Under the pieces are notes generated by a model. It did no database searches. It had not been told where the DNA came from and worked only from the letters and a program-made list of their open reading frames with translations. From Eledone cirrhosa (lineage: Eukaryota), in NCBI GenBank assembly GCA_964016885.1, contig OZ024742.1, forward strand, positions 175,522,001-175,586,000: a stretch of 64,000 nt of DNA. The letters run 5' to 3'. The translations under genes were made by a program, and so were the position numbers. Positions 10,181-61,367 of the stretch are shown here, in pieces. Position 1 is the stretch's first letter. Every line of letters begins with the position of its first letter.

Positions 10181-10359
10181 AACGAAGGAAATGTGGTAAG
10201 GAACCAGGTGGACCATAACGCACCAAAGTACTCAATACTTGAGGTAGTAGAGTGGGTAATAGGAACCAGTAAGACCCCGACAGCTGAGCTCAAGCCGTTT
10301 CGACGGCTAATTCGTCGAAACGTCTTGAGCTCAGCTGTCGGGGTCTTACTGGTTCCTAT
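10181..10359. mobile_element. Miniature inverted PLE-like insertion (47-bp palindrome plus one-sided tail) in TA-rich site
   Basis: Arms 10259-10305 and 10313-10359, one mismatch, 7-nt loop. Each arm begins CGTCGAAACG, like the 3' half of an HHR. CpG-rich relative to flanks. Confidence 0.6.
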
Positions 10360-10940
10360 ATATTATATATAGATTTATATATATATATTGGAAACTATAC
10401 AGATGTAAACATATATGCTATCTATTATTGTACACATATATATCATGCATTGTAATATATAAACTGATATGTATATATATATCAATGTTGAATAATAGAC
10501 AGTTTTACAGATATATCAGGATTTCTAATTTAGCTACAAGGTCAGAAAATTTTGGGGAAGGGCCTAGTTGATTAAATCAACCCCAGTACTTGACTGGTAC
10601 TTCATTTTATCAACCCAGGAAAGATGAAATTCAAAGTTGAGCTTCCCATGATTAGAACTCAGAACATTGCAGCTTACCTTACTGAAGTATCAAGCAACAC
10701 GCATGAGGAGACTTGATTATTCCAGCTCTTAGCCTCACTATCATCTCCAGTAATATTACAAGTGCCTGGGTTTGCTTCAATAATATTTTAGAAGGTAACA
10801 TCAACATTTCCTGCTGTAGTGTATAATTTCAGGACCCACCATCAATTGAGATAATGCTGTGTTTTAGGTGTCATGTGTGAGAGACCCACTATCAACTGAG
10901 CAATTTTAGAGGGAAACACTAGAATACTTCTTGTAGCATG

Positions 10941-13900
10941 TAGGTGAGAGTGCTACACCAACACTCCTTGCTGTGGTGTGTAAATGAGCCCGCTACACCA
11001 ACACTCCTTGTTGCAAGTGTAAATGAGTTAGCTATGCCAATATTCCTTGCTGCTGTGTGTAAGTGAGAGAGCTACACCAACATTCCTTAGTGTGGTGTGT
11101 AAAGGAGAGTGCTACACCAACATTCCTTATTGTGGTGTGTAAGTGAGAGCGCTACGTGAACATTCCTTATTGTGGTGTGTAAAGGAGAGTGCTGAACCAA
11201 CATTCCTTATTATGGTGTGTAAAGAAGAGAGCTACACCAACATTCCTTATTGTGGTGTGTAAGTCAGAGTGCTTCACCAACATTCATTATTGTGGTGTGT
11301 AAAGGAGAGCGCTACACCAACATTCCTTATTGTGGTGTGTAAGTGAGAGAGCTACACCAACATTCCTTATTGTGGTGTGTAAAGAAGAGAGCTACACCAA
11401 CATTCATTATTGTGGTGTGTAAGTGAGAGTGCTACACCAACATTCCTTATTGTGGTGTGTAAAGAAGAGAGCTACACCAACATTCCTTATTGTGGTGTGT
11501 AAGTGAGAGAGCTACACCAACATTCCTTATTGTGGTGTGTAAAGGAGAGTGCTACACCAACATTCCTTATTGTGGTGTGTAAAGCAGAGAGCTATACCAA
11601 CATTCCTTATTGTGGTGTGCAAGTGAGAGAGCTACACCAACATTCCTTATTGTGGTGTATAAAGGAGAGTGCTACACCAACATTCCTTATTGTGGTGTGT
11701 AAAGGAGAGCGCTGCACCAACATTCCTTATTGTGGTGTGTAAGTGAGAGAGATACACCATGATTCCTTATTGTGGTGTATAAAGGAGAGTGCTACACCAA
11801 CGTTCCTTATTGTGGTGTGTAAAGGAGAGTGCTACACCAACATTCCTTATTGTGGTGTGTAAAGGAGAGCGCTACATCAACATTCCTTATTGTGGTGTTT
11901 AAAGGCGAGCGCTACACTAACATTCCTTATTATGGTGTGTAAAGGAGAGTGTTACACCAACATTCCTTATTGTGGTGTGTAAGTGAGAGCTCTACACGAA
12001 CATTCCTTATTGTGGTGTGTAAAGGAGAGTGCTAAACCAACATTCCTTATTATGGTGTGTAAAGGAGAGAGCTACACCAAAATTTCTTATTGTGGTGTGT
12101 AAAGGAGAGTGCTAAACCAACATTCCTTATTATGGTGTGTAAAGAAGAGAGCTACACCAACATTCCTTATTGTGGTGTGTAAGTCAGAGAGCTTCACCAA
12201 CATTCATTATTGTGGTGTGTAAGTGAGAGTGCTACACCAACATTCCTTATTGTGGTGTGTAAGTGAGAGAGCTACACCAACATTCCTTATTGTGGTGTAT
12301 AAAGGAGAGTGCTACACCAACATTCCTTATTGTGGTGTTTAAAGCAGAGAGCTACACCAACATTCCTTCTTGTGGTGTGGAAAGGAGAGTGCTACACCAA
12401 CATTCTATATTGTGGTGTGTAAAGGAGAGCGCTACACTAACATTCCGTATTGTGGTGTGTAAGTGAGAGCGCTACACGAACATTCCTTATTGTGGTGTGT
12501 AAAGGAGAGTGCTACACCAACATTCCTTATTATGGTGTGTAAAGGAGAGTGCTACACCAACATTCCTTATTATGGTGTGTAAAGGGGAGAGCTACACCAA
12601 CATTCCTTATTGTAATGTGTAAAGTGGAGAGCTACACAAACATTCCTTATTGGGGTGTGTAAAGAGGAGAGCTAAACCAACATTCCTTATTGTTGTGTGT
12701 AAGTGAGAGTGCTACACCAACATTCCTTATTGTGGTGTGTAAGTGAGAGTGCTACACCAACATTCCTTATTGTGGTGTGTAAGTGAGAGAGCTACACTAA
12801 GATTCCTTATTGTGGTGTATAAAGGAGAGTGCTACACCAACATTCCTTATTGTGGTGTGTAAAGGAGAGCGCTACACCAACATTCCTTATTGTGGTGTGT
12901 AAGTGAGCGAGCTTCACCAACATTCCTTATTGTGGTGTGTAAGTGAGAGAGCTACACCAACATTCCTTATTGTGGTGTGTAAAGCAGAGAGCTACACCAA
13001 CATTCCTTATTGTGGTGTGTAAGTGAGAGAGCTACACCAACATTCCTTATAGTGGTGTGTAAAGCAGAGAGCTACACCAACATTCCTCATTGTGGTGTGT
13101 AAGTGAGAGTGCTACACCAACATTCCTTATTGTGGTGTGTAAAGGAGAGTGCTGAACCAACATTCCTTATTATGGTGTGTAAAGAAGAGAGCTACACCAA
13201 CATTCCTTATTGTGGTGTGTAAGTCAGAGTGCTTCACCAACATTCATTATTGTGGTGTGTAAAGGAGAGCGCTACACCAACATTCCTTATTGTGGTGTGT
13301 AAGTGAGAGAGCTACACCAACATTCCTTATTGTGGTGTGTAAAGGAGAGTGCTACACCAACATTCCTTATTGTGGTGTGTAAGTGAGAAAGCTACACCAA
13401 CATTCCTTATTGTGGTGTGTAAAGAGGAGAGCTACACCAACATTCCTTATTGTGGTGTGTAAAGAGGAGAGCTACACCAACATTCCTTATTGTGGTGTGT
13501 AAGTGAGAGAGCTTCACCAACATTCCTTATTGTGGCGTGTAAGTGAGAGTGCTACACCAACATTCCTTATTGTGGTGTGTAAGTGAGAGAGCTACACCAA
13601 CATTCCTTATTGTGGTGTGTAAGTGAGAAAGCTACACCAACATTCCTTATTGTGGTGTGTAAAGAGGAGAGCTACACCAACATTCCTTATTGTGGTGTGT
13701 AAAGGAGAGTGTTACACCAACATTCCTTATTGTGGTGTGTAAAGCAGAGAGCTATACCAACATTCCTTATTGTGGTGTGCAAGTGAGAGAGCTACACCAA
13801 GATTCCTTATTGTGGTGTATAAAGGAGAGTGCTACACCAACATTCCTTATTGTGGTGTGTAAAGGAGAGCGCTACACCAACATTCCTTATTGTGGTGTGT

Positions 13901-14002
13901 AAGTGACAGAGCTACACCATGATTCCTTATTGTGGTGTATAAAGGAAAGTGCTACACCAACATTCCTTATTGTGGTGTGTAAAGGAGAGTGCTACACCAA
14001 CC
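10941..14002. repeat. 40-bp minisatellite array, ~76 copies
   Basis: Unit gctacaccaacattccttattgtggtgtgtaa(gtg/agg)aga(gt/ga/gc); strict 40-bp period; degenerate at the left edge. Confidence 0.97.
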
Positions 14003-15319
14003 TTCCACACTCTAATGTATAATTGTTGTTGCGTATTACTCAGATTAATTTTTATTGATTTATTTCTTTTGTACATCATATTCATTATATAAATTGTGTT
14101 CATGTGTTAAAAGAAAACAGAGATTGTTGATCGTTGATAGAAACTGTGGTTGTTTCCAACTTTTAAAGCAAAAATTATGTCGGTCATTTATGAATTCAGA
14201 TAAGAACTTTATATTTGGCACGCCTCAAACATTTATGGTCAAAGATAACAGAACTGGTCAATGTCAGGGGTGGGATAATGTTATTCTCTTTGATTACATG
14301 ACAGAAAAATTAATAGGAAAAAAAAATAGTAATAAAACTAATAGCAAATATTATATAACAAAACGACTGAGTTCTCTAAACAGTGTATTTTTCTTGAAGA
14401 AATATCTGTCTAGGTTTCAGCTTATGTTTTGAAGTGTGAATTCTAAATATGAAGAATACCTGCAGTGTGGAACGAAAGTACACTTATGTATGGCAGACAA
14501 CACTCAGCAGAGATTAAAAAAAAACATTTTAATTCCTTTTCATGATTTTAATCAGAGAATTTAAGGTGAAGTTATCTCCAAATATTGTGACAATGGTTGC
14601 TAGAAGGGTTAACAATTATATATCATTGACAAATATCACCCTCTAACCTCCAACACTTTAATTATAAACTCACTAAGATAAGCAACCATTCAATTTACTT
14701 GTTATCCATGCTGCCATATGGAGTGTACTGATATTGGTGTGTGTGTATATGGGTTGTGTATGTTTACAAACCAAATAGTTCCACATTGTATCGCTATTGT
14801 AACTTGCCTTTAAAATGCTATATTAGATGGCTGTTTAATATTGCACTAATAGTGACTCATTATTTCTCAATACTGATCAAATGATCATTTTCTAAAGTCA
14901 ATTAATTAGACAACTAAACATTCTTATCTGGAACATACAATTTTCTGTTAGTAATTAGCTGATATGTGTTATTGACTTCTTAAGTGTCTTGCTTTTTCAG
15001 TTGTTATAATAGAAAATATTATGGAAGCCTACTTAATGATATTGAGTGTTAAATTCACAGCTAATAAAAAAAAACAATATAATTTAATGTACAGCAGACA
15101 ACTGTTTTGTCAGACTTTAAACAGAAATGTTTGTATTGATATGTATATATGTGTATGAAATATTAACAGCACTAACCCAGCATGCTTCAGAATAAAAGCA
15201 TATATGGACCCATATATGTTCTAAATGATATGAATGTATTAGATAGGTAGATAGATAGATAGATATAAATAGATAGATCGATAGATAGTGGTAGATATAT
15301 AGATAGGTAGATAGACAAT

Positions 15320-15450
15320 GGTCTTCCACAGTTTCTGTCTACCAAATTTTCATCACAAAGCAATGGTCATGCCAAGGCTATAACAGAAGACACTTGCCCA
15401 AGGGGCCACACAGTGGTACGGAGAACCTTAACCACATAGCCACTTCTAAA
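15320..15450 (-). mobile_element. Degenerate CORE-like tRNA-SINE with (TATC)n tail
   Basis: Reverse complement contains gtggctatgtggttaag...ccttgggcaagtgtcttctg...gtagacagaaactgtggaagacc; related copies at 21255-21395 and 59715-59850. Confidence 0.65.
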
Positions 15451-15992
15451 TGGTCATGAAGTGAAAACATTAAACACATAGCCATGCCTACTTGGTTATG
15501 AAGTTAACACTTTAATTACATAGCCATGCCTACATGGTTATGAAATGAACACTTTAACCACATTTACATGTCTACATGGCTATGAAGTTAATACCTTAAC
15601 CACATTGCCATGTCTACATGGTTATGAAGTGAATACCTTAACCACATTGCGATGTCTACATGGTTATGAAGTGAATACCTTAACCACATTGCCATGCCTT
15701 CATGGTTATGAAGTGAATACCTTAACCACATTGCCATGCCTACATGGTTATGAACACTTTAACCACGTTACCATGCCTACTTGGTTATGATGTGAACACT
15801 TTAACCACATAGCCATGTGTACATGGTTACGAAGTGAACACTTTAACCACATTTCCATGCCTACATGAATAGAAATTAAACACTTTAACCATGTTACCAT
15901 GCCTACTGAGTTAGAAAGTGAACACTTTAACCACATAGCCATGTCTACATGGTTATGAACTGAACACTTTAACAACAAAACCATGTCTACAA
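15428..15992. repeat. 42-bp tandem repeat, ~13 copies, derived from a SINE 5' head
   Basis: Unit ttaaccacatagccatgcctacatggttatgaagtgaacact; continuous with the SINE 5' end. Confidence 0.9.
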
Positions 15993-17004: not shown

Positions 17005-17063
<59 letters not shown>

Positions 17064-17864
17064 TGTATATATATATGATATATAGCATATGTTTCAAATT
17101 TAAACAGTTACTCTATACTTTGTTTCTCCAAGAAGCATCCTAACAAATACTCTATACTTCCTTCCAATATTTTTACTATTTACTTCAAAATGCAAAATTT
17201 GGAGGCTATATATGCTTCAGTCCTTCTCTTAAATTGGAAACATACACATTGGATTTTACATGCTACTGCAGAATATGAATATGTAATTGCAAGATGTCTG
17301 TGGTACACCAAGATTCAGGCAAAAGTAGGCCACCAAATTAACATTTTTTTTAGATTTGTATATGTCAAATTTAATTCACTCCTTCTTAGCATACATTTTC
17401 AAACTTAAACTTTAATCTGTACATCGTTTCACATAGAAGCAAACTAATTGAGACTTCATTCCCTCAAGCAGCCCCTGCTGAAAAGCTTCCCCTTATGTGG
17501 GAGTAGGTGAAGTATATATGCATAAAGCCCCTGCACTTATGGAAGGGGTGTAATATAGACACAAATATGTACATGCACATTGCTCCTCCAATCCACCCAC
17601 ACATGATGGTAAATGTTATGCTAGCTACATCAGAGATCAATGACAGTCTATTTGGCTTGTATGCACCCCTGATTTCACACTGCAATGGACCTACCATCTT
17701 GTGGTGGTCCCAGCTGTTGCTGATGCTAGTGGAGATGACCAATATCTGAGTGTTTACATAATACAGTTAACAAAAGATTCTAACATGCATGAGATCCCTT
17801 AATTATCAGCAAGCAGTCATACAATCCTCCTACTTCTCATCTAAGGTCTAAAAAGTCTAAAGTC

Positions 17865-18122: not shown

Positions 18123-18180
18123 TCTCAGGCACATGAAAATAGCATGACACACATGCAACCTACTTACCATCAAATACAGA

Positions 18181-21631: not shown

Positions 21632-21729
21632 TATATAATGTGTGTGTGATGGGCTTTTGCATATATATATCCGTCTAACCCATGCTAGCGTGGAGAACGG
21701 ACGTAAAACGGTAATGATGATGATGATGA

Positions 21730-21770
<41 letters not shown>

Positions 21771-21772
<2 letters not shown>

Positions 21773-22882
21773 TAAAAGATGTAGTGGGATCACAGGTAAG
21801 CTAACTAAGAATATAGAGTTTATATGGGGCCGGTGCTCTGGTGCAATAAGTAGCAGCAAGTGCCCAGAGAATACTAGCTCATGCCATTGCACAGATAGTT
21901 CTATAGAAATAGTGGACACCTTCCATTACCTGGGTGACAAAATCAGCAGTGGTGGAGGGTGCTCTGAAAGTACAGTAGCTAGAGTCAGAACGGGATGGAA
22001 AAAGTTCAGAGAGCTTATACCACTATTGGCCGATAAAGGGTTCTCTCTAAAAATGAAAGGCAGGCTGTATGATGCCAGCATACGAACAGCAATGTTACAT
22101 GGCAGTGAGACCTGGGCCTTGTGTGCAGAGGATATACGCAGACTGGAGAGGAACGAAGCTTGCATGCTCCGCTGGATGTGTAATAGTAATATACGTGAAC
22201 GGCAAAGCATAAATGAACTAAGGGAGAAATTAAGAATAAGAGGGATCAGATGTTGTCTACTCGAGAGAAGACTACGTTGGTATCGTCACGTGATGCGCAT
22301 GAAAGACGACAGCTGTATAAAAAAGTGCAGGGCGATAAAAATAGACGGTAGCCACAGAGTAGGCAGACCCAGAAAAACCTGGGACGAGTTGATAAATTAC
22401 GACTTCACACACTTACATCCTCTCCAAGACAATGTCACTGGACCGAGATCTTTGGTGCTACACAGTAACACAGAAGACCCGCCTTGCCTAAGTACAAAGC
22501 AAAACCTACAGTCAGTAGGTACCTCTAACAAAAATACACCCCGTCCCACTACCCCCACCCCATCCACACCACCCCTTTCAATGTAAATATATGTTGGTAC
22601 CACAACATCCAGTCCTAAATAAATGAGGTCGTGTAGGTGTCACGACAAAAAAACGCATAGTCCACGCTGTAATGTGGCTGTGTAGGTAACACGGTAAAAA
22701 CCTCCCAGTCCACACTGTAAACGTGGTTGGTGTTAGGAAGGGCATCCAACTGTAGAAAACCCGCCAGACAGTCCTATACGAGCAAGACAACCAATCTTGC
22801 CTCAAGTGGGAAAATTCCCGTCCAAACCCATGCAGTCGTGGAAGATGGACGTTAAACGATGATGATCATGATGATGATGGTG
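21771..22882 (+). mobile_element. 5'-truncated RTE-type LINE (RT C-terminal region, 3' UTR, (GAT)n tail)
   Basis: EIVDTFHYLGDKIS, KGRLYDASIRTAMLHGSETW, RRLRWYRHVMR and GRPRKTW are hallmark RTE C-terminal motifs; starts at a (TA)n tract. Confidence 0.92.
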
Positions 22883-22891
22883 ATATATATA

Positions 22892-22951
<60 letters not shown>

Positions 22952-24502: not shown

Positions 24503-24855
24503 TTTTTTTTTTTTTTTCATCCTTTCCAACCCCCCCCTCCCTAAATAAAATATTTTTTCCTCGCACATATCCTCCCTTCGTTAATTTTCAAAATTTTTAA
24601 TTTATACAGTATCTTCCAACGGTTTTCAACCCCTCTATATAAAATATATCTCCTCTCAGTTATAAAAACTATCTCTTTCTCTCTATCACCCATCTCTCCC
24701 TCTCATCTCCTTCCCTTTTCATCCTTTTCTCCCCCCCCTCTCTAAATAAAATATTTTTCCCAATATCACACATCAATCTAAAACCACTTTTCATATGTTG
24801 ATTTAAAACTGCACTATCAACAAGTGTTTTTTAGCCTTCATATCATGTTCTCCTG

Positions 24856-24922
24856 TTTTATCTGATGAAAACGCAAATATTATTGTTTGATGATGTTTGT
24901 TTTTGAAATGCGCATAATAAAA
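24856..24922 (+). ncRNA. Type I hammerhead ribozyme with extended stem II
   Basis: TTTTAT-CTGATGA-[long G-U-rich stem II]-GAAA-T-GCGC-ATA-ATAAAA. Perfect 6-bp stem I, palindromic stem III ATGCGCAT, AUA triplet. Confidence 0.88.
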
Positions 24923-25674
24923 TATATGGAACTCCTTTAACCATCTTTTGATCTTATATTATGCATACTCCAGTCCCACAAACTGTAGAGTGCTTCTTAT
25001 CCGATATCTGCATTGCTTTATTGTACTACAATAAAACTCACCTCCTACATATATATATATATATATATATTCGGATTTCTTTCCTAGAGGGCTTAAAATT
25101 TATTTGTGACTAATCCCGGTTTTTTTTTTTAAAAAACCGCGATAATATTACTTTTGCTGAACTCCTTATATTGTAGAGTTTTTTTCGGAATGTTTTTGAC
25201 TATTGTTTCATGTCTCATTCTGACGTCACCAGCCCTGTCTCTACATGTGCGTTTTTTTTCATAATTACGCATGATGTTGAACTAGCTTGCTTTTAAATTC
25301 CATTTTTGGCATATTATAAACAGTGGAACTTTGGTTATTGTGTCTTTGAGCTCTGCTGATGATCGACTCCAACCGTGACCATCCCCACTGAAAGTTTCGT
25401 GAAATAGTCTTTAAGACTAAACAGAGCATTTGTAGATTTTCCAAATCGAAGGATGAGTATTTTAAACTTTATTTTATTCTGAGTTAAGGCTCTATTGATT
25501 TTTCCCTGGATTTCACCAAATTCTGTGAATGAATCTATATCCTGATTCTTTTTGAATTGAGTTTGAATTATTTTCCCACATCATACGTTAACTATTTTTA
25601 CATTTTGACGCTATAGTCACTTATCTATTATGGAATACTGTTGGCTTCTTTCTACAATAATTTCTATACTTTTC

Positions 25675-30109: not shown

Positions 30110-31790
30110 CTTATGCCGGACTAAAGCCATGTTATTGGTGAATATTGCAGTGGTGGTGTGGAGTGGTGTGGTTTTGATATGCAGGACTAACACCATATTA
30201 GAGCTGTATATTGCAGTGATGGTGTGGAGTGGTGTGGCTATTGTATGCTGGATTAAATTCATATTATTGGTGAATATTGCAGTGGTGGTGTGGAATGGGG
30301 TGGCTTTGATATGCAGGACTAACACCATGTTAGAGCTGTATATTGCAGTGAGTGTGTGGAATGGGGTGGTTTTAATATGCAGGTCTAACATGTTAGTGCT
30401 GTATATTGCAGTGGTGGTGTGGAGTAGTGTGGCTATGGTATGCTGGACTGAAGCCATGTTATAGGTGAATATTGCAGTGGTGGTGTGGAGTGGTGTGGCT
30501 ATGGTATGCTGGACTGAAGCCATGTTATAGGTGAATATTGCAGTGGTGGTGTGGAGTGGTGTGGCTATGATATGCTGGACTGAAGCCATGTTATAGGTGA
30601 ATATTGCAGTGGAGGTGTGGAGTAGTGTGGCTATGGTATGCTGGACTGAAGCCATGTTATAGGTGAATATTGCAGTGGAGGTGTGGAGTGGTGTGGCTAT
30701 GATATGCTGGACTGAAGCCATGTTATAGGTGAATATTGCAGTGGTGGTGTGGAGTGGTGTGGCTATGATATGCAGGGCTGAAGCCATGTTATTGGTGAAT
30801 ATTGCAGTGGTGGTGTGGAGTAGTGTGGCTATGATATACTGGACTGAAGCCATGTTATTGGTGAATATTGCAGTGGTGGTGTGGAGTGGTGTGGCTATGA
30901 TATGCAGGACTGAAGCCATGTTATAGGTGAATATTGCAGTGGTGGTGTGGAGTGGTGTGGCTATGATATGCTGGATTGAAGCCATGTTATAGCTGAATAT
31001 TGCAGTGGTGGTGTGGAGTGGTGTGGCTATGATATGCTGGATTGAAGCCATGTTATAGCTGAATATTGCAGTGGTGGTGTGGAGTAGTGTGGCTATGATA
31101 TACTGGACTGAAGCCATGTTATTGGTGAATATTGCAGTGGTGGTGTGGAGTAGTGTGGCTATGGTATGCTGGACTGAAGCCATGTTATTGGTGAATATTG
31201 CAGTGGTGGTGTGGAGTGGTGTGGCTATGGTATGCTGGACTAAAGCCATGTTATAGCTGAATATTGCAGTGGAGGTGTGGAGTAGTGTGGCTATGGAATG
31301 CTGGACTGAAGCCATGTTATAGGTGAATATTGCAGTGGTGGTGTGGAGTGGTGTGGCTATGGTATGCTGGATTGAAGCCATGTTATTGGTGAATATTGCA
31401 GTGGTGGTGTGGAGTGGTGTGGCTATGGTATGCTGGACTGAAGCCATGTTATTGGTGAATATTGCAGTGGTGGTGTGGAGTGGTGTGGCTATGGTATGCT
31501 GGACTGAAGCCATGTTATTGGTGAATATTGCAGTGGTGGTGTGGAGTGGTGTGGCTATGATATGCAGGACTGAAGCCATGTTATTGGTGAATATTGCATG
31601 TTAGTGCTGTATATTGCAGTGAAATTGTAGAGTGAGGTGGCTATGATATGCCGGACTAAAGCCATGTTAGTGCTATATATTGCAGAGAGAAGGTGAAGTG
31701 ATCATGACATGGAGGACTAAAACTCTGTTAGTGTTGTTTATTGCTGTGAGAAGTGGGTGTAGACTATGATGGAACATATGGCCATGTGTG
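30110..31790. repeat. 63-bp minisatellite, ~25 copies
   Basis: Unit gccatgttat(t/a)ggtgaatattgcagtggtggtgtggagtggtgtggctatg(g/a)tatgctggactgaa; homogeneous centre, diverged edges. Confidence 0.95.
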
Positions 31791-32339: not shown

Positions 32340-32765
32340 TTGAAAAATATGAATCTGACTGACATAAAGACTGAAAAAATTTGGAAGATTGTCTGACAAA
32401 CATAGAATCTGGAACAATTTAGGAGATTGTCTGACTGAAAAAGACTCAGGAAAGATTTGGGAGATTGTCTGATTAACATAGAATCTGGAAATAGTTTGGA
32501 GATTGTCTCAGTGACATAGACTCTGGAAAGATTTGGGAGATTGTCTGATCAACATAGACTCAGGAAAGATTTGTGAGATTTTTCTGACTGACAGAGAGTC
32601 TAGAAAGATTTGGAGGATTGTCTGACTGACATAGACTATGGAAAGATTTGGGAGATTGTCTGACTGACATAAACTCTGGAAATATTTGGGAGATTGTCTG
32701 AGTGACATAGATTCTGGAAAGATTTAGGAGAAAATTCTGACTGACAGCCTTGAAGGATTTGGGAC
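32340..32765. repeat. ~39-bp minisatellite, ~10 copies
   Basis: Unit ggaaagatttgggagattgtctgactgacatagactct. Confidence 0.9.
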
Positions 32766-36794: not shown

Positions 36795-36839
<45 letters not shown>

Positions 36840-36899
36840 TACAAATAGATATATACATACACATGTATATAAACATATAAATAAATATATATATGTGTG

Positions 36900-37640
36900 T
36901 ATCATCATCATCATCATCATCAGGTTTAGCGTCCGTGTTCCACGCTTGCATGGGTTTGGACGGGGGTTTTCCCACTTGAGGCAAGAGTGGTTGTCTTGCT
37001 CGCATAGGACTGTCTGGCGGGTTTTCTACAGTTGGATGCCCTTCCTAACACCAACCACATTTACAGTGTGGGGCTGGGAGGTTTTTACCGTGTTGCCTAC
37101 ACGGCCACATTTACAGCGTGGACTGTGTGTTTTTTGTCGTGACACCTACACGATCTCATTTGTTTCGGCCTGGATGTTGTGGGACCAACATAACTTTACA
37201 TTGAAAGGGGCGGTGTGGAGGTGGTGGGACGGGGGTGTGTTTTGATAGAGGTGCCTACTGACTGTAGTAGGTTTTTACTTTGTATTTAGGTAAGGCGGGT
37301 CTTCTCTATTACTGAGTACCGCCAAAGGTCTCGGTCTAGTGACATTGTCTTGGAGAGGTGTAAGCGTGTGAGGTCGGAATTTATCAGCTCGTCCCATGTT
37401 TTTCTGGGTCTGCCTACTCCGTGGCTACCGTCTATCTTTATTGCCCTGCACTTTGTTATACAGCTGTCGTCTTTCATGCGCATCACGTGACCGTACCAAC
37501 GTAGCCTTCTCTCGAGTAAACAACATCTGATCCCTCTTATTTCTAATTTTTTCCTTAGTTCGTTTATGCTTTGCCGTTCACGTATATTACTATTGCACAT
37601 CCAGCGGAGCATGCAAGCTTCGTTCCTCTCTAGTCTGCGT
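36900..37640 (-). mobile_element. 5'-truncated RTE-type LINE, same family as 21771-22882
   Basis: IRRLERNEACMLRWMC...RRLRWYGHVMR...GRPRKTW...DRDLWR; matching 3' UTR; (GAT)n tail. Confidence 0.92.
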
Positions 37641-37700
37641 ATATATATATATATATATTTATTTAAATATAAACACACAAATATACATATATATATATAT

Positions 37701-38209
37701 ATTCACATTGAGAACACAGATTTTCCTTATCCAATAAATAATGGCATTTGTTCACACAGTCACTAGACAGACCGTTATTATCTAATGATGTTGTATAAAA
37801 CATAACTAACGTGAGAACAATATATTATTTACAAATTCAAGAAATATAACACATATGATTATTTCAAAAAATATGTTTCTTTCCATTGATATTTTTGTTT
37901 AGATTGAAAGACAGGTTTTAATGGAAACATTGGTCCCAGAAATTATCTAGCTAATGTTTGGCATGAAGAATTAGAAAGTTTAACAAATATATATATAATG
38001 TGTTGTGTTATATTACATACATATTGCATCATGTAATATCATATAAATATATATATGATATATATATATATATGATATACCTAACTCTTCCCATGGACTG
38101 AGTGCTCTACCACTACAGATATTACCTTCCAGTGTTCTACCATCTGTAGTGGTAGAGCACTCAGTCCATGGGACGAGTTAGGTATATCATATATATATCT
38201 ATCATATAT

Positions 38210-38252
<43 letters not shown>

Positions 38253-38577
38253 CAATATGTATGTAATATAACACAACACATTATATATATATTTGTTAAA
38301 CCTTCTAATTCTTCATGCCAAACATTACCTAGATAATTTCTGGGACCAATGTTTCCATTAAAACCTGTCTTTAAATCTAAACAAAAAGATCAATGGAAAG
38401 AAACATATTTTTTGAAATAATCATCTGTGTTATATTTCTTGAATTTGTAAATGATATATTGTTTTCATGTTAGTTATGTTTTATACACATCATTAGATAA
38501 CAACGGTCTGTCTAGTGACTGTGTGAACAAATCCCATTATTTATTGGATAAGGAAAATCTGTGTTCTCAATGTGAAT
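37701..38577. repeat. ~880-bp fold-back palindrome with a nested central hairpin
   Basis: Outer arms 37701-38032 and 38247-38577; inner arms 38072-38120 and 38142-38190. Confidence 0.92.
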
Positions 38578-45579: not shown

Positions 45580-45798
45580 TTAAGAATATTTTCGAAACAG
45601 CGAGTGGGTTAGAATTTATTCGAAATGTAAGCTATCGCCGTATTTTGACTGAAGAAATTAAAGTAATTATTTAGCCTGATAGTGGGGTTATATATATATA
45701 TATTTATTTATATATTTAATTTATAATAAATTGGAGTGAAAGCGCTTGGTGCGTGTGTTTCTTATTGGCAGCATGACCCTCCCAAAGTATAACAATAT
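45580..45798 (+). mobile_element. PLE 3'-end fragment without tail, same terminus as the 49580-50153 element
   Basis: gtgaaagcgcttggtgcgtgtgtttcttattggcagcatgaccctcccaaagtataacaatat followed by (TA)n. Confidence 0.7.
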
Positions 45799-45808
45799 AT
45801 ATATATAT

Positions 45809-45862
<54 letters not shown>

Positions 45863-45904
45863 GATATTAAACAAATGGAAACTATATTTATAAAACCATA
45901 TTTA

Positions 45905-45966
45905 TTTCATTATACATATTTCAGGGATACCCTATTAAAAATGTGGCATGCCTTGGTCAGATAAAA
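45905..45966 (-). ncRNA. Hammerhead motif with mutated core (CTGACCA)
   Basis: Inverted copy of 46534-46595; catalytic G8 changed to C, so probably inactive. Confidence 0.65.
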
Positions 45967-46533
45967 TACAATATATAAACAGTTTTATAAATAATTTTGA
46001 CGTACCATAATATAAGCGACCATTAAATTAGGAGGCTGCCTTGGTAGTGAAATGTTTATAATTATTTAGTTATAGTGTTAAGCACAGTTAGAAAAAAGAC
46101 GGAGAAAAAGAAGAAAGGAGGTAAAGAAAATCAGCGAGAGAGAGGGGAGAGAGAAAGAAGGAGGAGGTGAAAAAAGAGACGCAACCGTCTTTTCTCTAAC
46201 TGTGCTTAACACTATAACTAAATAATTACTGTACTCTCTCTATATATAGTACTCACTCTCTCTGGAATCTCTCTATTTGTATGGTGAATTATTATTATTT
46301 GTCTGTGGCTTTCGGTTGCCTCTCTTTTTTCCCCTCCTCCTTCTTTCTCTCTCCTCTCTCTCTCTCTGTTTTTCTTTAAATCCTTTCTTCTTTTTCTCCG
46401 TCTTTTTTCTAACTGTGCTTAACACTATAACTAAATAATTATAAACACTTCACTACCAAGGCAGCCTCCTAATTTAATGGTCGCTTATATTATGGTACGT
46501 CAAAATTATTTATAAAACTGTTTATATATTGTA

Positions 46534-46595
46534 TTTTATCTGACGAAGGCATGCCATATTTTTAATATGGTAACCCTGAAATATGTATAATGAAA
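46534..46595 (+). ncRNA. Type I hammerhead ribozyme
   Basis: TTTTAT-CTGACGA-AGG..TGCCATATT-TTT-AATATGGTA..CCT-GAAA-T-ATGT-ATA-ATGAAA. Confidence 0.85.
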
Positions 46596-46746
46596 TAAAT
46601 ATGGTTTTATAAATATAGTTTCCATTTGTGTAATATCGTATATCTACTCCAAAAACTTGTCGAGTGCTTTATATCAGTTATAAAATATTTACTTGTTGTA
46701 ACCCAACAATTTTAAATAAAACTTTTGCATATATATATATATATAT

Positions 46747-46803
<57 letters not shown>

Positions 46804-47048
46804 TTTTGCGAGGTTTTTGATATGAAATCGTGTGTCGAAACAAATATTGTTATACTTGGTGAGGGTCGTTTTTGTGTAATATTGCCAGAATTAATAACAG
46901 AACACACTCACTATTTGGTTGGTTTTCGCTTTCGCTTCTGTGTCTTTTATATCGGTAATCTAATGTATTCGGTCCTCAATGTTGCCATTGACTGACCAAC
47001 GGTCAAAAACACAGATACAATATAGACACAAACACATATATATAGTTT

Positions 47049-47090
47049 ATCAAAGTTCTTTCGTTGCACATCTGCAACATCGTCAGTGGT
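47049..47090 (-). ncRNA. Type I hammerhead ribozyme in PLE 3' UTR
   Basis: ACCA-CTGACGA-T-GTTGCA-GATG-TGCAAC-GAAA-G-AA-CTT-TGAT; perfect 6-bp stem II, weak stem I. Confidence 0.78.
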
Positions 47091-47396
47091 GCTATTGTTT
47101 CCTCCGGTTGCATTGTATTTTCTACGCCATCTTTATTTAGTCTGTTTATATATTTATTTTATTTTTTTTGTCTTCTTTGCGCATGCGTTTGCGTGTGTGT
47201 ATAGTGTTTTGTTTGATGTGTGTTCGTGATTGGGTGACTGTGTATTGGTTAATGTATTCTATCTTTACTAGTGTGTGCTTATATGTGTTTGTTGTTATTG
47301 TGCTTGTGCATGTATTTATTTATTTATCTATTTATTTATTTAGTTATACTTCCCTTAGGTCAGTGTTGTTTGTTTGGGTGTTGTTGTTATTCCATT

Positions 47397-49534
47397 AATT
47401 TTTTCTGTTTAGCCTTGGCCTTCTAAGTTCTATTTCACTGGCCTCTCTGATTTGCCTATCTGCTGGGTCATTTCTATGTTTAGATATTATTCTAATTTCT
47501 ATGTTGTCTATGTTACCGTCGTGTTGTTGTCTGGCATGTTCGTATAGTACTGAACCGTTTTCTCGTCCTTTTAGTTCCCCCAGTGTTGGTCTATCCTTTC
47601 ACCTATGCTACGAGCTGTCGCCTATGTTTGTTGTTGTCATGTTTCTGCAAGTACCCCCTGTACATCTTATGCTATAGACTACGTTTCTAGTTTTTCAGTT
47701 TATCCGGGGGTTTACCTTACATATTATACATTTCCTATTAGTACAGTGGGTTTTCTTAAAAGGGTAGGTTTTTGCTGGCTGATCAGGAATTCTATGGTGG
47801 TTCCTGGCTTTTCTACCACCTTAATCTTTAAGTGGGTCTTTCTCAGGGCCTTTCTACACTGGTTAGCTAATTTCCCACCAGGGGTAGTGTCCACAAACAT
47901 GACATTCTGGTATCTCTGGTTGTCGTACCATGAGGTGTCTTTCCCTATCTTATGTCTAGCCCTATCTAAGCTATTCCATGATTTGCTCCTGTATAATGGG
48001 CAAATTCATTTCATGTCCAGTTCTATGAGGGTCTTATACTTCTCCGTGGCTCATTCGTATACTCTGATTCTGTCTCTTTGGTTGTAGCCAGAGAACTGCA
48101 TGCGGTTGATGAAGTGTTGGATGTGTCTTTTCATTTCTGTTGGGTCGCACATGCGGGACACGTTCTTCATCACTCGTACCAAGTCTGCGATCAGAATATT
48201 AAACTTAGCACTACTGGACATTGCTGAGTTTTTGAGTATCAGGTATTTGGAGGCCATGGGTTTAGCATAGTGTGAGTGGTGAATTTGGGCTCTCTCGTCT
48301 ATAGTGTTAATCCAGAGTTCCATGTCTAATACAGGTAGTCTATTGTTAGGGTGTTTGGAAGGGTAGTCGATAGTTACAGTTATACTCTGGTGTATGGAAT
48401 TAGCTATCTGCTGGATGCTTTCCATTGTGCTACGTTCTAAATCAAACTTGTTAGTGCTCTCTTGTGGGGATGTTCTTATATCTATATTGATATCGTCTAC
48501 GTAACGAGAGTACATGATGAGGTCTATGGAGCTATCATTAAGGAGATCTTTAAGTCTCCTTTCCCACCATAACATAAAATGTTTGGCAACGTCACCAGCT
48601 ATGCTGACGCCAATGGATGCTCCCTCATTTTGGGTGTAGATCTTCTCGTTGAACTTGAATATGTGGCCCTTTGGGGTAGTTTTGATACTAGCCCGTATTG
48701 CATGTGCGATCATTTTTCTTACCTGATCATTGTTTGGGGGGGGTCCGTATAGCTTTGGTCCACCCAATCCACCTCCCCATGGGAGTCTTTTTAGCCATTG
48801 AGGTTATGGTGGGGAGTCTACCTCTTATGGGTCTACTGGGGTAGAAACGTCTAAAGTCATGGCTGTCTAGGTAGTCAGTGTCGTAGGTAAGTCTAAGTAG
48901 GAGGCCCAGTTCGTCTGTGTAGACGTCGCAGATCTCCACCTCACTCTCAATGATCATCTCCACACATTTTTCCACAGAAAAATCAATGTTAATGGATGGG
49001 TACAGTGATACCACATCCATGCTGCCTATTACGCAGTTGGATAGGTTCCTGTTTTTGTTGCACTCACTGATTCGTTGCACTCACTCCTTCTGCTGAGGAG
49101 GTCCTCTGTACTGTCACATACATCTGGGGACATCTTGATTATAGGGCGTATAACCATTGAGAGGACGTAAGAGATCCTGTAGTTGCTAGCTATATTTGCT
49201 CCGCATACAGGTCTTGTTGGTGGTCCTGTTGTCAGGTCGTCGACTGTCTTGTGGTCTTTGTGGATCCCATAGAAGGGTGGTATGCCATTGTTAGACGCCT
49301 GGAAGTTTTTGGCAGTGCGTCTGCCTGGCTTTAGGATGTCGGTCCACATCATCATGTGAGCGTTGAGGATTTTCTCTCTCCCATCATGTATTTGCTGTGC
49401 AATTTCACTCGTGTTGGTGATGTGGGTTCGCATAGCCTTGATGTAGTTCGGCATGTTATCTATTGACATCCTACCAGACTTATCCGTGGGTAGACATACT
49501 ACCTCACCATCCCTTGTGCGCTGCTTGAGGCTAA

Positions 49535-49537
<3 letters not shown>
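47397..49537 (-). pseudogene. Frameshifted PLE reverse transcriptase plus C-terminal GIY-YIG endonuclease
   Basis: PTDKSG, FYGIHKDHK, TRPVC, IGSMDVVSLYPSI, YTQNEGASIG, YSRYVDDI, LPVLDMEL. My translation of 47400-47690 gives RNVVYSIRC...TARSIGERIDQH...SVLYEHARQQH...RQIREASEI..RPRLNRK. Confidence 0.93.
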
Positions 49538-49586
<49 letters not shown>

Positions 49587-49733
49587 ATACTTTGGGAGGG
49601 TCATGTTGCCAATAAGAAACACACGCACCAGTTGCTTTCACTTCAATTTAATTTATTAAATATTTATAAATTTACAAATTTATAAATTTCTGGTTGGTTG
49701 GTTGGTTCCACAACCAGATAGTTGTTTATATAT

Positions 49734-49778
49734 AGTCATAGTTCTTTCGTCACACACTCTGTGACCTCTTCAGTGACT
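49734..49778 (-). ncRNA. Type I hammerhead ribozyme
   Basis: Reverse complement of 49893-49937. Confidence 0.83.
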
Positions 49779-49892
49779 GGGGATTTCGTTCTTCGTTTCT
49801 GTGTCTTTCCTTTCTTCTATCCTACGCCATTTTTCTGAAAATGGCGTAGGATAGAAGAAAGGAAAGACACAGAAACGAAGAACGAAATCCCC

Positions 49893-49937
49893 AGTCACTG
49901 AAGAGGTCACAGAGTGTGTGACGAAAGAACTATGACT
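49893..49937 (+). ncRNA. Type I hammerhead ribozyme
   Basis: AGTCA-CTGAAGA-G-GTCAC-AGAGTGT-GTGAC-GAAA-G-AA-CTA-TGACT; 5-bp stems I and II, CUA triplet. Confidence 0.85.
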
Positions 49938-50150
49938 ATATATATATAAACAACTATCTGGTTGTGGAACCAACCAACCAACCAGAAATTTATAAATTTG
50001 TAAATTTATAAATATTTAATAAATTAAATTGAAGTGAAAGCAACTGGTGCGTGTGTTTCTTATTGGCAACATGACCCTCCCAAAGTATAACAATATCGGT
50101 TTCAACACACGATTTCAGATAAAGAATCTTGCTAAACAAATTCAGAAACG

Positions 50151-50575
<425 letters not shown>

Positions 50576-55646: not shown

Positions 55647-55791
<145 letters not shown>

Positions 55792-55934
55792 ATTACAATA
55801 CTGGAGCGTGTTGGAGTTAAACACCCTCTTTGCATTATAAAAATGACAGTAAAAGGTATAGCTCAATGTAATTAAACAGAGCCGAAGAATTAGGAAAATA
55901 AAACAAAGAAGCCTTCAATACATCAAAAGTCTTT

Positions 55935-55979
55935 ATTACCCAATAATGTTTCGTCCTATTAAGGACTCATCAGGGCAAT
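55935..55979 (-). ncRNA. Type I hammerhead motif with altered cleavage region
   Basis: ATTGCC-CTGATGA-GTCC-TTAATA-GGAC-GAAA-CATTATTG-GGTAAT. Confidence 0.75.
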
Positions 55980-58900
55980 CAAAACTACAAGAAGCACTAT
56001 CGGCCAATACAAGCCGAAAACTCCGAAGAATATGGAGTGTACATACACTAAAGTATTGGAAGATTATAGGTAAAAATATATAATAAAAATCACTAAGGAG
56101 GTGGATAACATTTTGAACCATATTACAAATATAGTCCAAAGCAAAAAACTAGAGCTAAACAAAGGTGGTTATATAGAGCGGGAATTATAGTACTATATGT
56201 AATACAATATAATATAATATAATATACTTGTGACAATATTAAAATTAAAATTAAAATTAAAAAGCACAATATACATATGTATATATATATACACACACGT
56301 ACGCACATATACATATACATCAATACACATTTCCATCATTAACAGCACAAATTAAACCTTATTAAGAGTTTAAATATAAATAAGCATAATAGGAATAAAA
56401 ATAAAAATAATACGTATATCTAATATACAGTATAACATGAAGTAATGAAATGATTAAAAGTAACACATATAATATATAATAAACTATATAATGATATAAT
56501 ATATAATATAATATAATAGATAATCTCCGGTTAATTTACACAAACAATATAGATGTCAGAATAACACTATAATAATAATATAATAATATATAATATATAA
56601 TGGCATGTACGTTAACAAATCAATTCATATAGAGTTACAGAGCCGGTGAGAAAAAAATATATATTGTACAATACCAAAATTATGATGGTACAAAAATAGA
56701 AACATCTTACAGGATATATAAAACTTAACATATCATAATGGTACATAAAATCATCGGTAAGTAACAAAGATCAATATTACATTTACAAAGAGTTGAATAA
56801 CAACTTCAATATAAAATAATGAACATAATATAATATATAATTACTTATAATTACAAGGTTGGTAAACAGACACATATGTGAATGAGTGAATAAGGGCCAG
56901 ACAGAAAATACTATGCACAGTAGTATTAATAAAAAAATAAAATCGACCGGAAATCAAAAAGCAAAAACAAATGTATTTACTTAGGTCTCACATGCAGTTA
57001 AGTAAAAACTTAGGAAACAACCCGGATAAATGACTAGAAAACCCTAGTTGATAAATTAATATTGAAAATACTTAAAATACTTAATAAGGCAATACAATAT
57101 TAGCTATGGTTTAAGTAATGAAAATCCCTAAACATTAAGATATCACTATAAATATATATAGAAAGGAATGAAATATTCTACTATCATTTACATAACGATA
57201 TCTAAAAAAACTGACTTTAAGCAGAATTATGGTAGGCTAATGTGGACCGAAAAAAATAAATGTACGAGAATACAAAGGAGCATAAAATCATAATCAATAT
57301 ACTGTATTATATAATAGAAAGGAGCATAAAAAAGGGGATTAAATATAATCATAATATATTTGAAGGGGTTAGCAATAAATGTATGTGTGCATGGGGGTTA
57401 TCCAAAGAAGAATCCAAATGGATACAAATTGTATCCATTAGCTGATATATTCCATTACTTATTTTTTTAGTTTAGGTTCATTTTGTTTACCACCATTATT
57501 ATCATTATTATCATTGGTTTTTGACAAATTTTTATTCTAGCTCTCATAATCTTTTGGCTACTATACCATATCTATCTTCTTACACATTAAATTTTCACTA
57601 TTAACACCTTATGAGTATATATCTGATTATATATTTTATATTATTTTATTTCATTTTATTTTATTTTATTTGGATTCTTTGGATACCCCCCCCCCCTCCC
57701 CCCATGCACACATACCCTTATTGCTAACCCCTTCAAATATATTATGATTATATTTAATCCCCTTTTTTATGCTCCTTTCTACTATATAATACAATATATT
57801 GATTATGATTTTATGCTCCTTTGTATCCCTCATACATTTCTTTTTTTCTGTCCACATTAGCCTACCATAATTCTGCTTAAAGTCAGTTTTTTAGATATCG
57901 TTATGTAAATGATAGTAGAGTATTTCATTCCTTTCTATATATATTTATAGTGATATCTTAATGTTTAGGGATTTTGATTACTTAAACCATAGCTAATATT
58001 GTATTGCCTTATTAAGTATTTTAAATATTTTCAATATTAATTTATCAAATAGGGTTTTCTAGTCATTTATCCGGGTTGTTTCCTAAGTTTTTACTTAACT
58101 GCATGTGAGACCTAAGTAAATACTTTTGTTTTTGTTTTTTGATTTCCGGTCGATTTTATTTTTTTATTAATACTACTGTGCATAGTATTTTCTGTCTGGC
58201 CCTTATTCACTCATTCACATATGTGTCTGTTTACCAACCTTGTAATTATAAGTAATTATATATTATATTATGTTCATTATTTTATATTGAAGTTGTTATT
58301 CAACTCTTTGTAAATGTACTATTGATCCTTACTACTTACTGATGATTTTATGTACCATTATGATATGTTAAATTGTATATATCCCGTAAGATGTTTATAT
58401 TGTTGTACCATCATAATTTTGGTATTGTACAATATATATTTTTTTCTCACCTGCTCTGTAACTCTATATGAATTGATTTGTTAACTTACATGCCATTATA
58501 TATTATATATTATTATATTATTATTATAGTGTTATTCTGACATCTATATTGTTTGTGTAAATTAACCGGAGATTATCTATTATATTATATTATATATTAT
58601 ATCATTATATAGTTTATTATATATTATATGTGTTACTTTTAATCATTTCATTACTTCATGTTATACTGTATATTAGATATACGTATTATTTTTATTTTTA
58701 TTCCTATTATGCTTATTTATATTTAAACTCTTAATAAGGTTTAATTTGTGCTGTTAATGATGGAAATGTGTATTGATGTATATGTATATGTGCGTACGTG
58801 TGTGTATATATATATACATATGTATATTGTGCTTTTTAATTTTAATTTTAATATTGTTACAAGTATATTATATTATATTATATTGTATTACATATAGTAC

Positions 58901-59110
58901 TATAATTCCCGCTCTATATAACCACCTTTGTTTAGCTCTAGTTTTTTGCTTTGGACTATATTTGTAATATGGTTCAAAATGTTATCCACCTCCTTAGTGA
59001 TTTTTATTATATATTTTTACCCATAATCTTCCAATACTTTAGTGTATGTACACTCCATATTCTTCGGAGTTTTCGGCTTGTATTGGCCGATAGTGCTTCT
59101 TGTAGTTTTG

Positions 59111-59155
59111 ATTGCCCTGATGAGTCCTTAATAGGACGAAACATTGTTGGCTAAT
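59111..59155 (+). ncRNA. Type I hammerhead ribozyme
   Basis: ATTGCC-CTGATGA-GTCC-TTAATA-GGAC-GAAA-C-ATT-GTT-GGCTAAT; canonical core and stem II, GUU triplet. Confidence 0.85.
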
Positions 59156-61367
59156 AAAGACTTTTGATGTATTGAAGGCTTCTTTGTTTTATTTTCATAA
59201 TGTATATATATATATATATATATGGATTGTAACATCAAGTTACAGAAGCCGGATGAGCTTTTGATTCCAGAGACAGGCCCAATTGACACAGATTGAACCT
59301 TCAGCTGATCAATTGTGAAATGCGCCTCACACCTTTATAAATGTAATGAATATTTGACATCTCATCCATATTATTATATATATATAACACATGCTAGTGC
59401 AGGAAAATGGACATTAAATGATGATGATGATGATATATATATATGTAAATGGAGTTTGCTTGGAGTATAATGGAAAATGGTTGTATTGGACACTGCTACA
59501 ATGCAAGTGATGTTGTAAATATTAAGAAAACATAATCAGGTAAGGAATGAGACAGGTGAGGTTGAGTGTAGAATTGAAAGAAAATCAAGAATGTTACCTT
59601 GGAAATATTTATTAATCCCAATATATAAGAGAATGTTGGAGAGGACCTTTCTATGCAACTGTGTGGTTTGTGTAATGGGGATAAATATATATGTCTAAGC
59701 TACTATCTATATGACAGGATTCCACACAGTTTCTGTCTATGCAATTTCACTCACAAACCAAATGTGGATTAACCCAAGACTAATGTAATCGACACTATGC
59801 TGGAGGATTGAAACCAAAATCTCATCATTGTGAAATGATTTTCTTGACCCTTCTGCATGCGTGTGTGTGTTTGTGTGCATACATGCATGTGTGAGTGTGT
59901 GTGTTTGTCAATATCTTGTATCAAATCAAAATGCAACACTCAGTCACTTTAGAATATTTCAGTGCCAAAATTTGAGGTCTGTGGATAATGAGATCCTGGC
60001 CTTCAAATTAATTTTGGTCAGCTTCCAATTTCAGTCTCAAACTAAATGTCAATAAATTATTGGCAGTTAGAATTCCACACTGTTGAACTGACCAAGCATT
60101 GGACAATTGGCTAAAGATCAGTCCACTGAAGTGTAAACAGGTACCACGGGTAGATGGAACATAGTAGATCAAGATAACAGATTCCAGGTCTAGGTGGACC
60201 ATACTAGAAAAATATAACATGTACTACAAATAGGTAGACCATACTAGAAAAATAAAATCGGATACAATGAAAAGGTGGATCATTCGAGAATATAAATTGG
60301 TATCTTGTGGTGGTAGATCATACTTGAACAACAAATAAGGACACTGAATAATTTATTATCTTTCAGTGCTGCCGTTAATTTTGATATAAACTTGATAGCA
60401 CAATTGTTCACATGATAACATCCTAATTACATTCATTTTATGTCTATTTTCCATTCTGGCATGGGTTGGATGGTTCATTACAGTCTGATACAAGAGATGG
60501 TCAGATAATGACGTCTTGCTCATGTATCGAATATTGGTATGGTTTCTACAGCTGGGTACCCTTTCTAATGATAAACATTTTACAGTGTTATTTCCACCAC
60601 CACCTCAGAATAGCATAAATAATGTTTTCTTTATTTTTTATTACTCTCTAAAATGTTTGGTTAGCATATAAAAAATGAAGCATGTTTTCTCTGATAGGAT
60701 ACCTTGTTTAAATGCTTGTAATATAATGGACTCTGCTAAAGATGCCCAATGGCCATCTAGCAGTGTTAAACTGCATTAAGGTTTTATGTAAACTACCCAA
60801 AATAGAAGTGGTCCCTGAAACAGGCTTCTACATAATATTTCCTTTTACCAAAATGCTAAAGAGGGTAATTAAAACTGAAATGACAGTTATGAAGCAAAAG
60901 TTTTAACCACACAATCATACCTAATATATTTAAAACAATGGTTCTTACAAAACTATGACACATCCACTCCTTGCAATACCAGGTCTTTTCAATTGTTATC
61001 TACTATAATTTTTTTAATTATCTCTTTACAGTGTTAATTATTAAAATAATGTATTAAGGCAAATTACTTCATTAACGTTTTTGTGAACTGTTAATTTGTG
61101 ATCAACCTAATAACTCAATATTTCATTTTATGCATTAGAAGTGGCACTAACAAAGCATTGTTACATCATAGATGTACAATACACGCACAATAGTGTTGCA
61201 ATGAATTATTTTAAGATGTGATCTTTTCACAGCTATGATCACAGGTTTTTAAATATTCATAGCTAGACACTTGTATGCTTCATCATCATCATCATCATCA
61301 TCACCGTTTTACGTCCGTTCTTCCATGCTAGCATGGGTTAGACGGTAGAGCATGGGTTAAATGATTA

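Follow-up and report, generated by a model that had tools for sequence, protein, structure and literature searches.

Paired Penelope-like arms in the Eledone cirrhosa genome end at two fixed sites, probably through priming of one RNA from both strands of (TA)n targets

The 64,000-nucleotide (nt) stretch of the Eledone cirrhosa genome analyzed here (NCBI GenBank assembly GCA_964016885.1, contig OZ024742.1, positions 175,522,001 to 175,586,000 of the forward strand; hereafter the window) contains five insertions in (TA)n tracts, E1 to E5, each built of two inverted arms joined head-to-head. Judged by their motifs, these are truncated copies of five EN+ (endonuclease-bearing) Penelope-like element (PLE) families, numbered 1 to 5, respectively, four of them Hydra-like and one Neptune-like. 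We found that the arms of each family end at one of two fixed sites, a short-end site (S) and a tail-end site (T) located 56 to 100 nt beyond S, and that nearly every insertion uses one of each. We consider it probable that (TA)n is nicked on both strands by an enzyme, probably a dimer, and that the two DNA ends prime a single RNA, one at S and the other at T. The observation is a real one, concerning a known class of element with a partly known layout, and it makes the mechanism testable by constraining it with new quantitative data.

All five insertions lie within a few bases of where an earlier note on this DNA had placed them, and the architecture that it described (inverted arms, 3' ends outward, a tail on one arm, and a (TA)n setting) was confirmed in each, with the qualification that the TA flanks of E1 are short and interrupted. 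The arms are 93 to 99.6% identical, and the tails are 56 to 100 nt by direct comparison of arms, or 80 nt (E1, left), 88 nt (E2, right), 90 nt (E3, right), 60 nt (E4, right), and 99 nt (E5, left) when measured against each family's native sequence. Both the family open reading frames (ORFs) and the hammerhead cores read toward the element ends; because the cores upstream of S read outward, the sense strand is fixed. That note had called the five unrelated, but families 1, 2, 3, and 5 are distant relatives of one another. The parts of the five elements are as follows.

10179 to 10313, minus strand: E1 tail arm (family 1, Hydra-like PLE) with its T end; tail at 10179 to 10258 (80 nt) plus 55 nt upstream of S
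10230 to 10253, minus strand: E1 stem 1, of the RCTC...GAGY type, a few bases 3' of S; from the sequence by eye and the family alignment, and absent from the minimum-energy fold
10313 to 10359, plus strand: E1 short arm, ending at S; carries the 3' half of a hammerhead-like fold whose full motif lies upstream in locus L211
22944 to 24503, minus strand: E2 short-end arm (family 2, Hydra-like), 1560 nt, extending into the GIY-YIG coding region
24511 to 25050, plus strand: E2 tail arm, 452 nt plus an 88-nt tail (24963 to 25050)
~24854 to 24924, plus strand: hammerhead-like core of the E2 tail arm, with stem 1 at 24967 to 24991 (by eye)
45857 to 46183, minus strand: E3 short-end arm (family 3, Hydra-like), 327 nt
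46185 to 46734, plus strand: E3 tail arm, 460 nt plus a 90-nt tail
~46532 to 46597, plus strand: hammerhead-like core of the E3 tail arm, with stem 1 at 46646 to 46665 (by eye)
49579 to 49833, minus strand: E4 short-end arm (family 4, Neptune-like), 255 nt
49838 to 50156, plus strand: E4 tail arm, 259 nt plus a 60-nt tail (50097 to 50156); hammerhead-like core at ~49893 to 49937 (by eye)
55788 to 57419, minus strand: E5 tail arm (family 5, Hydra-like), 1533 nt plus a 99-nt tail; stem 1 at 55861 to 55882, hammerhead at 55935 to 55979
57426 to 59201, plus strand: E5 short-end arm, 1776 nt; hammerhead at 59111 to 59155

Long copies of all five families contain a single ORF with reverse transcriptase (RT) and C-terminal GIY-YIG motifs, recognized by eye, such as the 786-aa open frame in L211, and the families include both inverted arms and partial tandems that form pseudo-long terminal repeats (pLTRs), with units of 3118, 3673, 4091, 4151, and 4671 nt. 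Together with the hammerheads, these features support the Penelope-like identity proposed previously. Pfam returned RVT_1 for the family 4 protein alone (E 0.00089) and nothing relevant for the other four; the family 1 protein has 661 unnamed homologues. The Rfam hammerhead RF00163 matches both E5 arms at 32.4 and 29.1 bits, under the 34-bit gathering score, and putative ribozymes were recognized by eye, on sequence only, as hammerhead-like cores in families 2 to 4 and a variant core in family 1. The family 1 fold upstream of position 3887 in L211, also read by eye, has U and A replacing the usual C3-G8 pair, and its long loop II contains a TATA-like box and the common 5' boundary of the arms.

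Family labels derive from motifs read by eye in translations. Families 1, 2, 3, and 5 have a CxCX5C linker, CxxC and CxH around the catalytic E and N, a single Cys inside GIY-YIG, no CCHH, and (TA)n targets, and by the motifs listed in PMC8557442 they would belong to the Hydra clade; families 1, 2, and 5 also have DKT instead of DKG, and one family 3 copy has DKS. Families 1 and 3 have RWR where Hydra has RWK, and the units are 3.1 to 4.7 kb where Hydra elements are "generally under 3 kb"; PMC8557442 presents RWK and the <3-kb length as general rather than strict Hydra features. Family 4 has a CX2-5CxxC linker and a CCHH with two Cys inside GIY-YIG, and is Neptune or Nematis by motifs, either of the two.

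The DNA examined comprises the window, 600 kb of unselected sequence, both neighboring and distant, and about 250 further loci chosen through exact-pattern searches of the 3.0-Gb genome, which merged into 200 stretches (1.34 Mb). End classes were already known when pairs were picked for retrieval, and the close pairs include nearly all of those in families 1 and 2 and subsets of those in families 3 to 5, visible exceptions included. Exact end patterns for families 1 to 5 have 13,451, 7,669, 15,843, 26,134, and 2,251 genomic matches, respectively; the reversed control has 0. When 491 ends were mapped on family references, 241 fell at S and 220 at T, 12 ran on into the ORF, and 18 lay elsewhere (several of them from diverged relatives), with the proviso that ends more than ~45 nt upstream of S would escape the anchor. 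The two sharp peaks per family expected in the earlier note are thus present. TA-like sequence follows 223 of the 241 S ends and 215 of the 220 T ends, compared with 7.9% of random positions, and both sites end on 1 to 6 nt of alternating A/T microhomology that merges into the tract; the proposal that the short arm starts at a fixed internal site with TA microhomology is therefore supported. Microhomology is insufficient to fix either site, as equal or better TA words nearby go unused. At the S end of family 5, a unit of 8 to 10 nt is repeated up to six times (L197, L200, L239, L247, and G000:C1:75235947), which gives the impression of an enzyme that stutters while initiating.

Scanned without reference to family, 664 kb of unselected sequence yielded 43 inverted pairs with TA near both sides, from at least eight further families; a few of the 43 are duplicates or mis-anchored. 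A one-sided tail of at least 45 nt is present in 27, no tail in four, an offset on both sides in two, and an intermediate arrangement in ten. Another TA-targeting family in the unselected blocks has a one-sided tail of 30 to 37 nt, like the published length, and yet another has a 149-nt tail.

Pairing of ends was scored in 166 insertions, the set obtained when one duplicate and six pairs with <70% family coverage (five S+T and one S+S, L235, coverage 0.62) were removed from 173 outward-facing pairs. We found 156 S+T insertions, three T+T, no S+S, and seven with one unassigned end; among the 20 insertions in unselected sequence, 18 are S+T and two have one unassigned end. Tails on both arms, which would have spoken against the proposed architecture if as common as tails on one, are therefore rare. 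Independent choice of S and T would yield half like-with-like pairs, and the near-strict pairing indicates that the two priming events are coupled. At L235, the flank beyond S has likewise been copied in inverted orientation over ~300 nt, and this locus may be a larger inverted duplication or reflect flank capture.

The earlier note had the tail arm begin where the RNA truly ends on its 3' side, and for this we found no support. Where copies stand in tandem, the tail in each of the five families continues unbroken through a short leader into the ORF start, and T, like S, lies at a TA microhomology of 1 to 6 nt; both primers, the one at T included, likely start inside the RNA. The alternative, that the RNA is processed at T or reads through into flanking TA and carries (UA)n, with only the short arm primed internally, draws on several observations: T ends are as sharp as S ends, the T microhomology in family 5 is as little as 1 nt, many genomic copies end in T-(TA)n and could be transcribed, and RNA-seq reads end at the initiation sites in the available part of PMC11167929. 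Against it, sequence passes through T into the ORF in every family, with a second stem beyond T, and the same source describes an in vitro product unchanged by added 3' sequence. At L231, the S arm is a full-length copy plus a partial upstream copy and the T arm mirrors the upstream (internal) pLTR and not the terminal one, which places it 4 kb upstream of the end primed at S; therefore, the two primers can engage a single transcript at pLTRs separated by 4 kb. We regard a true 3' end at T as improbable.

The other boundary of the short insertions is also shared. Among family 1 arms, 57 of 68 stop 52 to 65 nt upstream of S, ~30 nt behind the TATA-like box, and 24 of 70 family 2 arms stop at 168 to 174. 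This common 5' boundary is best read as the RNA 5' end, and for family 1 a common stop is expected if the template was the 5' leader of an RNA continuing downstream. In the Hydra-like families 1, 2, 3, and 5, predicted stems begin 2 to 6 nt after both S and T, with RCTC paired with GAGY, a two-base bulge, and a variable inner hairpin. By eye, the stem is clear in six and partial in two of eight further families, one of which has a compensatory change; automatic alignment failed to register the stems in line across families.

The reach of the arms bears on whether one cDNA or two are made. Among 138 simple insertions, with arms within 40 nt of each other scored as equal, the S arm reaches further 5' in 39, the T arm in 31, and the two are equal in 68; because either arm can be longer, simple fold-back of a single cDNA is excluded. 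The sequence content of the arms bears on the template. Dense sense-strand A-to-G clusters are common to both arms in three insertions (L231, L228, and L121), and such clusters are the signature expected of ADAR editing. The edited patterns of L231 and L228 each have exactly two matches in 3.0 Gb, one per arm of a single insertion, pointing to one RNA template. In L228, where the S arm is the longer and the T arm bears the tail, the arms differ at three of ~33 edited sites (G/T, G/A, and G/A), and these differences could be separate readings of inosine. Over all pairs, 296 private variants (counted per arm) are common to both arms and 318 are not, with A-to-G accounting for 90 of the shared and 35 of the unshared, which argues against routine conversion between arms. 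The third pattern was rejected as a private barcode, as it belongs to a spread subfamily with 69 matches; L121 appears to be a hyper-edited family 2 copy that turned source element, spreading its A-to-G marks.

A hairpin could instead be made when one cDNA folds back and self-primes, or from an antisense template, the route put forward for the Penelopes of rotifers (PMC3846280). The 68 insertions with equal reach and the near-perfect palindromes at some centers would suit such a route, which likewise predicts private edits in both arms. However, fold-back of a cDNA begun at T needs a T arm that reaches at least as far as the S arm, and 39 cases, E2, E5, and the edited L228 among them, have the longer S arm; begun at S, it cannot produce the tail. 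The shared edits are A-to-G on the sense strand, and the L228 arms differ at edited sites. As a sole route fold-back is already contradicted, and we give this explanation little credence overall.

A dimer with two RNAs, one for each of two asymmetric subunits that use S and T, would explain overlapping arms without strand displacement, and most variants common to both arms could stem from one source locus, as at L121. Two genome-unique hyper-editing patterns present in both arms are hard to reconcile with this, and we think the use of two RNAs unlikely as well. Slightly less likely still is that the ends are set after synthesis, endonuclease cuts resolving a longer intermediate at S and T in the absence of priming there, as suggested for the tail in the part of PMC8557442 available to us. 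Both sites are AT-rich like the target, and in family 4 an identical 7-nt word is present at S and T, both points in favor of this reading; nonetheless, RT starts map onto the tail boundaries in PMC11167929 (in the portion seen), and the reiterated units found by eye at S in family 5 (five of 50 short-end rows versus 0 of 50 tail rows) suit slippage at initiation. An assembly artefact of fold-back reads or collapsed repeats is very improbable, for although long palindromes in AT tracts assemble poorly and no single read bridging an entire window element came out of the public-run contigs, the arms differ by 0.4 to 7%, the ends are family-specific and asymmetric, the centers vary among copies, and the independently assembled contigs contain tail-to-TA ends and head-to-head family 4 joints at many offsets, with short sides of 20 to 28 nt.

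Taken together, the end mapping, pairing, and arm lengths support the proposal of the earlier note that both target strands are primed and two truncated cDNAs are joined head-to-head. A probable sequence of events would begin with staggered nicks in (TA)n made by the element enzyme, probably dimeric, with the stems positioning two enzyme subunits on the RNA. The self-complementary TA primer would pair with whichever U/A word lies closest on the 5' side of each stem, and the downstream enzyme would displace the upstream cDNA, such that the same stretch of RNA is copied twice. Both cDNAs would reach the RNA 5' end or drop off, and would be joined head-to-head with 0 to 2 nt of overlap, each templating the other's second strand; the staggered nicks would duplicate part of the TA tract. 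Whether all of this constitutes a dedicated, programmed form of twin priming (a dimer on two RNA stems, both strands primed on a single RNA, displacement copying, an occasional telomerase-like stutter, and TA-tract lengthening) is more doubtful, and we put it forward tentatively. One variant, in which the second primer blocks the first cDNA, was rejected: among 100 listed of 215 family 2 ORF starts, 12 break within 52 bases around T and 88 read through, a weak effect at most next to the 4% roughly estimated by hand, and one that L121 failed to follow.

Several observations weigh against priming of one RNA at S and T by a stem-guided dimer. The three T+T insertions exist, the one S+S locus was removed by the coverage filter, and 122 of 461 S or T ends have no detected partner, so that single-arm outcomes or missed partners are common. 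The stems are weak, lying in the minimum-energy fold at six of ten sites, with one more partial (z scores of +0.42 to −2.14), and family 4 lacks the stem motif yet pairs its ends equally strictly. Private barcodes number two in all, the L121 pattern is uninformative, and gene conversion between arms is a formal alternative. Microhomology of at least 2 nt is present at 17 of 46 resolved center junctions compared with 15% expected, but the test is noisy, with 59 of 105 junctions giving apparent insertions. Interruptions on both flanks of a tract can predate insertion in compound tracts, which would explain part of their recurrence (see below). Finally, according to PMC11167929 the start site shares no homology with the target, and start sites are used alike on both strands.

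The target tracts pre-exist insertion and may grow with it, because paralogous empty sites already hold TA: the host repeat at L057 has 50 to 104 nt, and that at L213 has 11 nt, versus 30 plus 31 nt after insertion. The idea that all of the TA is added by the enzyme was rejected on the same two sites. In 55 of 149 cases an interruption of the tract reappears, directly oriented, on the other flank, compared with 19.2 in shuffles, and in reverse orientation this holds for 18 of 147; for directly oriented interruption islands of at least 8 nt the figure is nine of 67, compared with 0.8. The flanks of L225, L264, and E3 resemble duplications tens of bases long. Contigs assembled from public runs yielded no empty site, no usable orthologous site, and no bridged window element.

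TA tracts also act as repeated insertion hot spots. At 45703 to 46870 of the window, a single TA tract is the meeting point of three PLE ends belonging to different families, and the features concerned, other than the arms of E3, are these.

45703 to 45798, plus strand: lone family 4 arm ending at S, directed into the TA tract that holds E3
45796 to 45861, no strand: left TA tract of E3, read directly; has the same CA-type interruption as the right tract (46730 to 46799), a possible long target duplication
46800 to 49537, minus strand: broken, 5'-truncated Neptune-like PLE related to family 4 (RT, linker, GIY-YIG, and tail-type end), a single arm between two TA tracts; identified from its translation, a weak RVT_1 match (E 0.069), and similarity to the E4 tail

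A sixth palindrome (37702 to 38577) has TA at both ends, no tail, and arms that are 91% identical; its outer arms have no other copy in the 1.34 Mb, and its center consists of two inward-facing tail-like pieces with the stem motif described above that match a small fold-back family at several C1 sites. 5'-truncated LINE (long interspersed element) fragments bordered on one side by a TA tract and on the other by short ATC-type repeats are present at 21639 to 22586 and 36839 to 37702 of the window and in the flanks of L211, L216, and L231, and thus occupy TA tracts in common with PLEs; from their motifs we take these fragments to be RTE-like. By self-alignment, the window also contains long tandem arrays (10908 to 14022, 15425 to 15991, 30112 to 31762, and 32354 to 32764) with periods of ~20, 42, 66, and 76 nt, the 66-nt array being open for 534 codons on the minus strand. 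Rfam microRNA matches on E4, E3, and microsatellites were discounted, as they are below gathering scores and reflect palindromes.

The origin of the tandem and inverted structures and tails of PLEs is named as open in PMC8557442, and the steps after initiation are described as unvalidated in PMC11167929. From the S/T rule, the stems, and the edit barcodes follow specific predictions that the in vitro assay already in use could address. Telomerase is the sister of PLE RTs, and internal initiation positioned by RNA structure is therefore relevant to how telomerase arose. In annotation terms, the short TA-flanked hairpins that number tens of thousands in this genome are PLE stubs rather than miniature inverted-repeat transposable elements or microRNA precursors. 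If true, programmed twin priming would add a third general route of integration to those of eukaryotic retroelements, and would explain why the arms are inverted and the tail one-sided, as well as part of the microsatellite load of the genome.

The inversion of the arms, a tail on one side, the targeting of TA, and a pair of internal start sites have been published before. As far as the accessible parts of Craig et al. 2021 (PMC8557442) and Arkhipova et al. 2013 (PMC3846280) go, EN+ PLE insertion units have an adjacent inverted 5'-truncated copy, often a tail at one end, and partial tandem pLTRs, and the elements described here share with them the tandem pLTRs, inverted copy, one-end tail, pLTR hammerhead, and the (TA)n targets of Hydra and Naiad. 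They differ in that their tails are 56 to 100 nt rather than 30 to 40 nt and one-sidedness is near-strict per insertion, and the arm-length data do not fit the EN resolution or self-priming that those papers invoke. Our literature search found no paper that applies twin priming to PLEs or gives the S/T pairing rule, the stems, or edit barcodes, with most subscription papers and the supplements of PMC11167929 and PMC8557442 beyond its reach, the latter of which may bear on this; the parts seen of 10.64898/2026.07.22.740005, PMC13282606, PMC9977147, and PMC10877575 gave nothing decisive.

The closest parallel is Poseidon of Anolis carolinensis, for which the available text of Frangieh et al. 2024 (PMC11167929) describes, in vitro, cutting and extension of both strands, two internal sites of RT initiation at the tail boundaries, and a predicted dimer. 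The system here is alike in these respects and in its AT-rich target and stem-loop start, but is unlike it in having short TA microhomology at both sites, sites placed before the ORF start, and one of each per insertion; inverted arms and the use of one RNA are left unaddressed in the portion of that paper seen.

The process works like twin priming but differs from the L1 process. In L1, the first primer is on poly(A), the position of the second priming varies, and the two pieces represent mostly separate stretches of RNA. Here, there is no poly(A), two fixed internal sites are used, the arms overlap one another, and such products are common instead of occasional. Twin priming is itself an unvalidated model for L1 inversions in the part available of a review (PMC10760644, on Ostertag and Kazazian 2001), and the likeness to it lies in a second priming at the target, the joining of two cDNAs, and an inversion with 3' ends outward.

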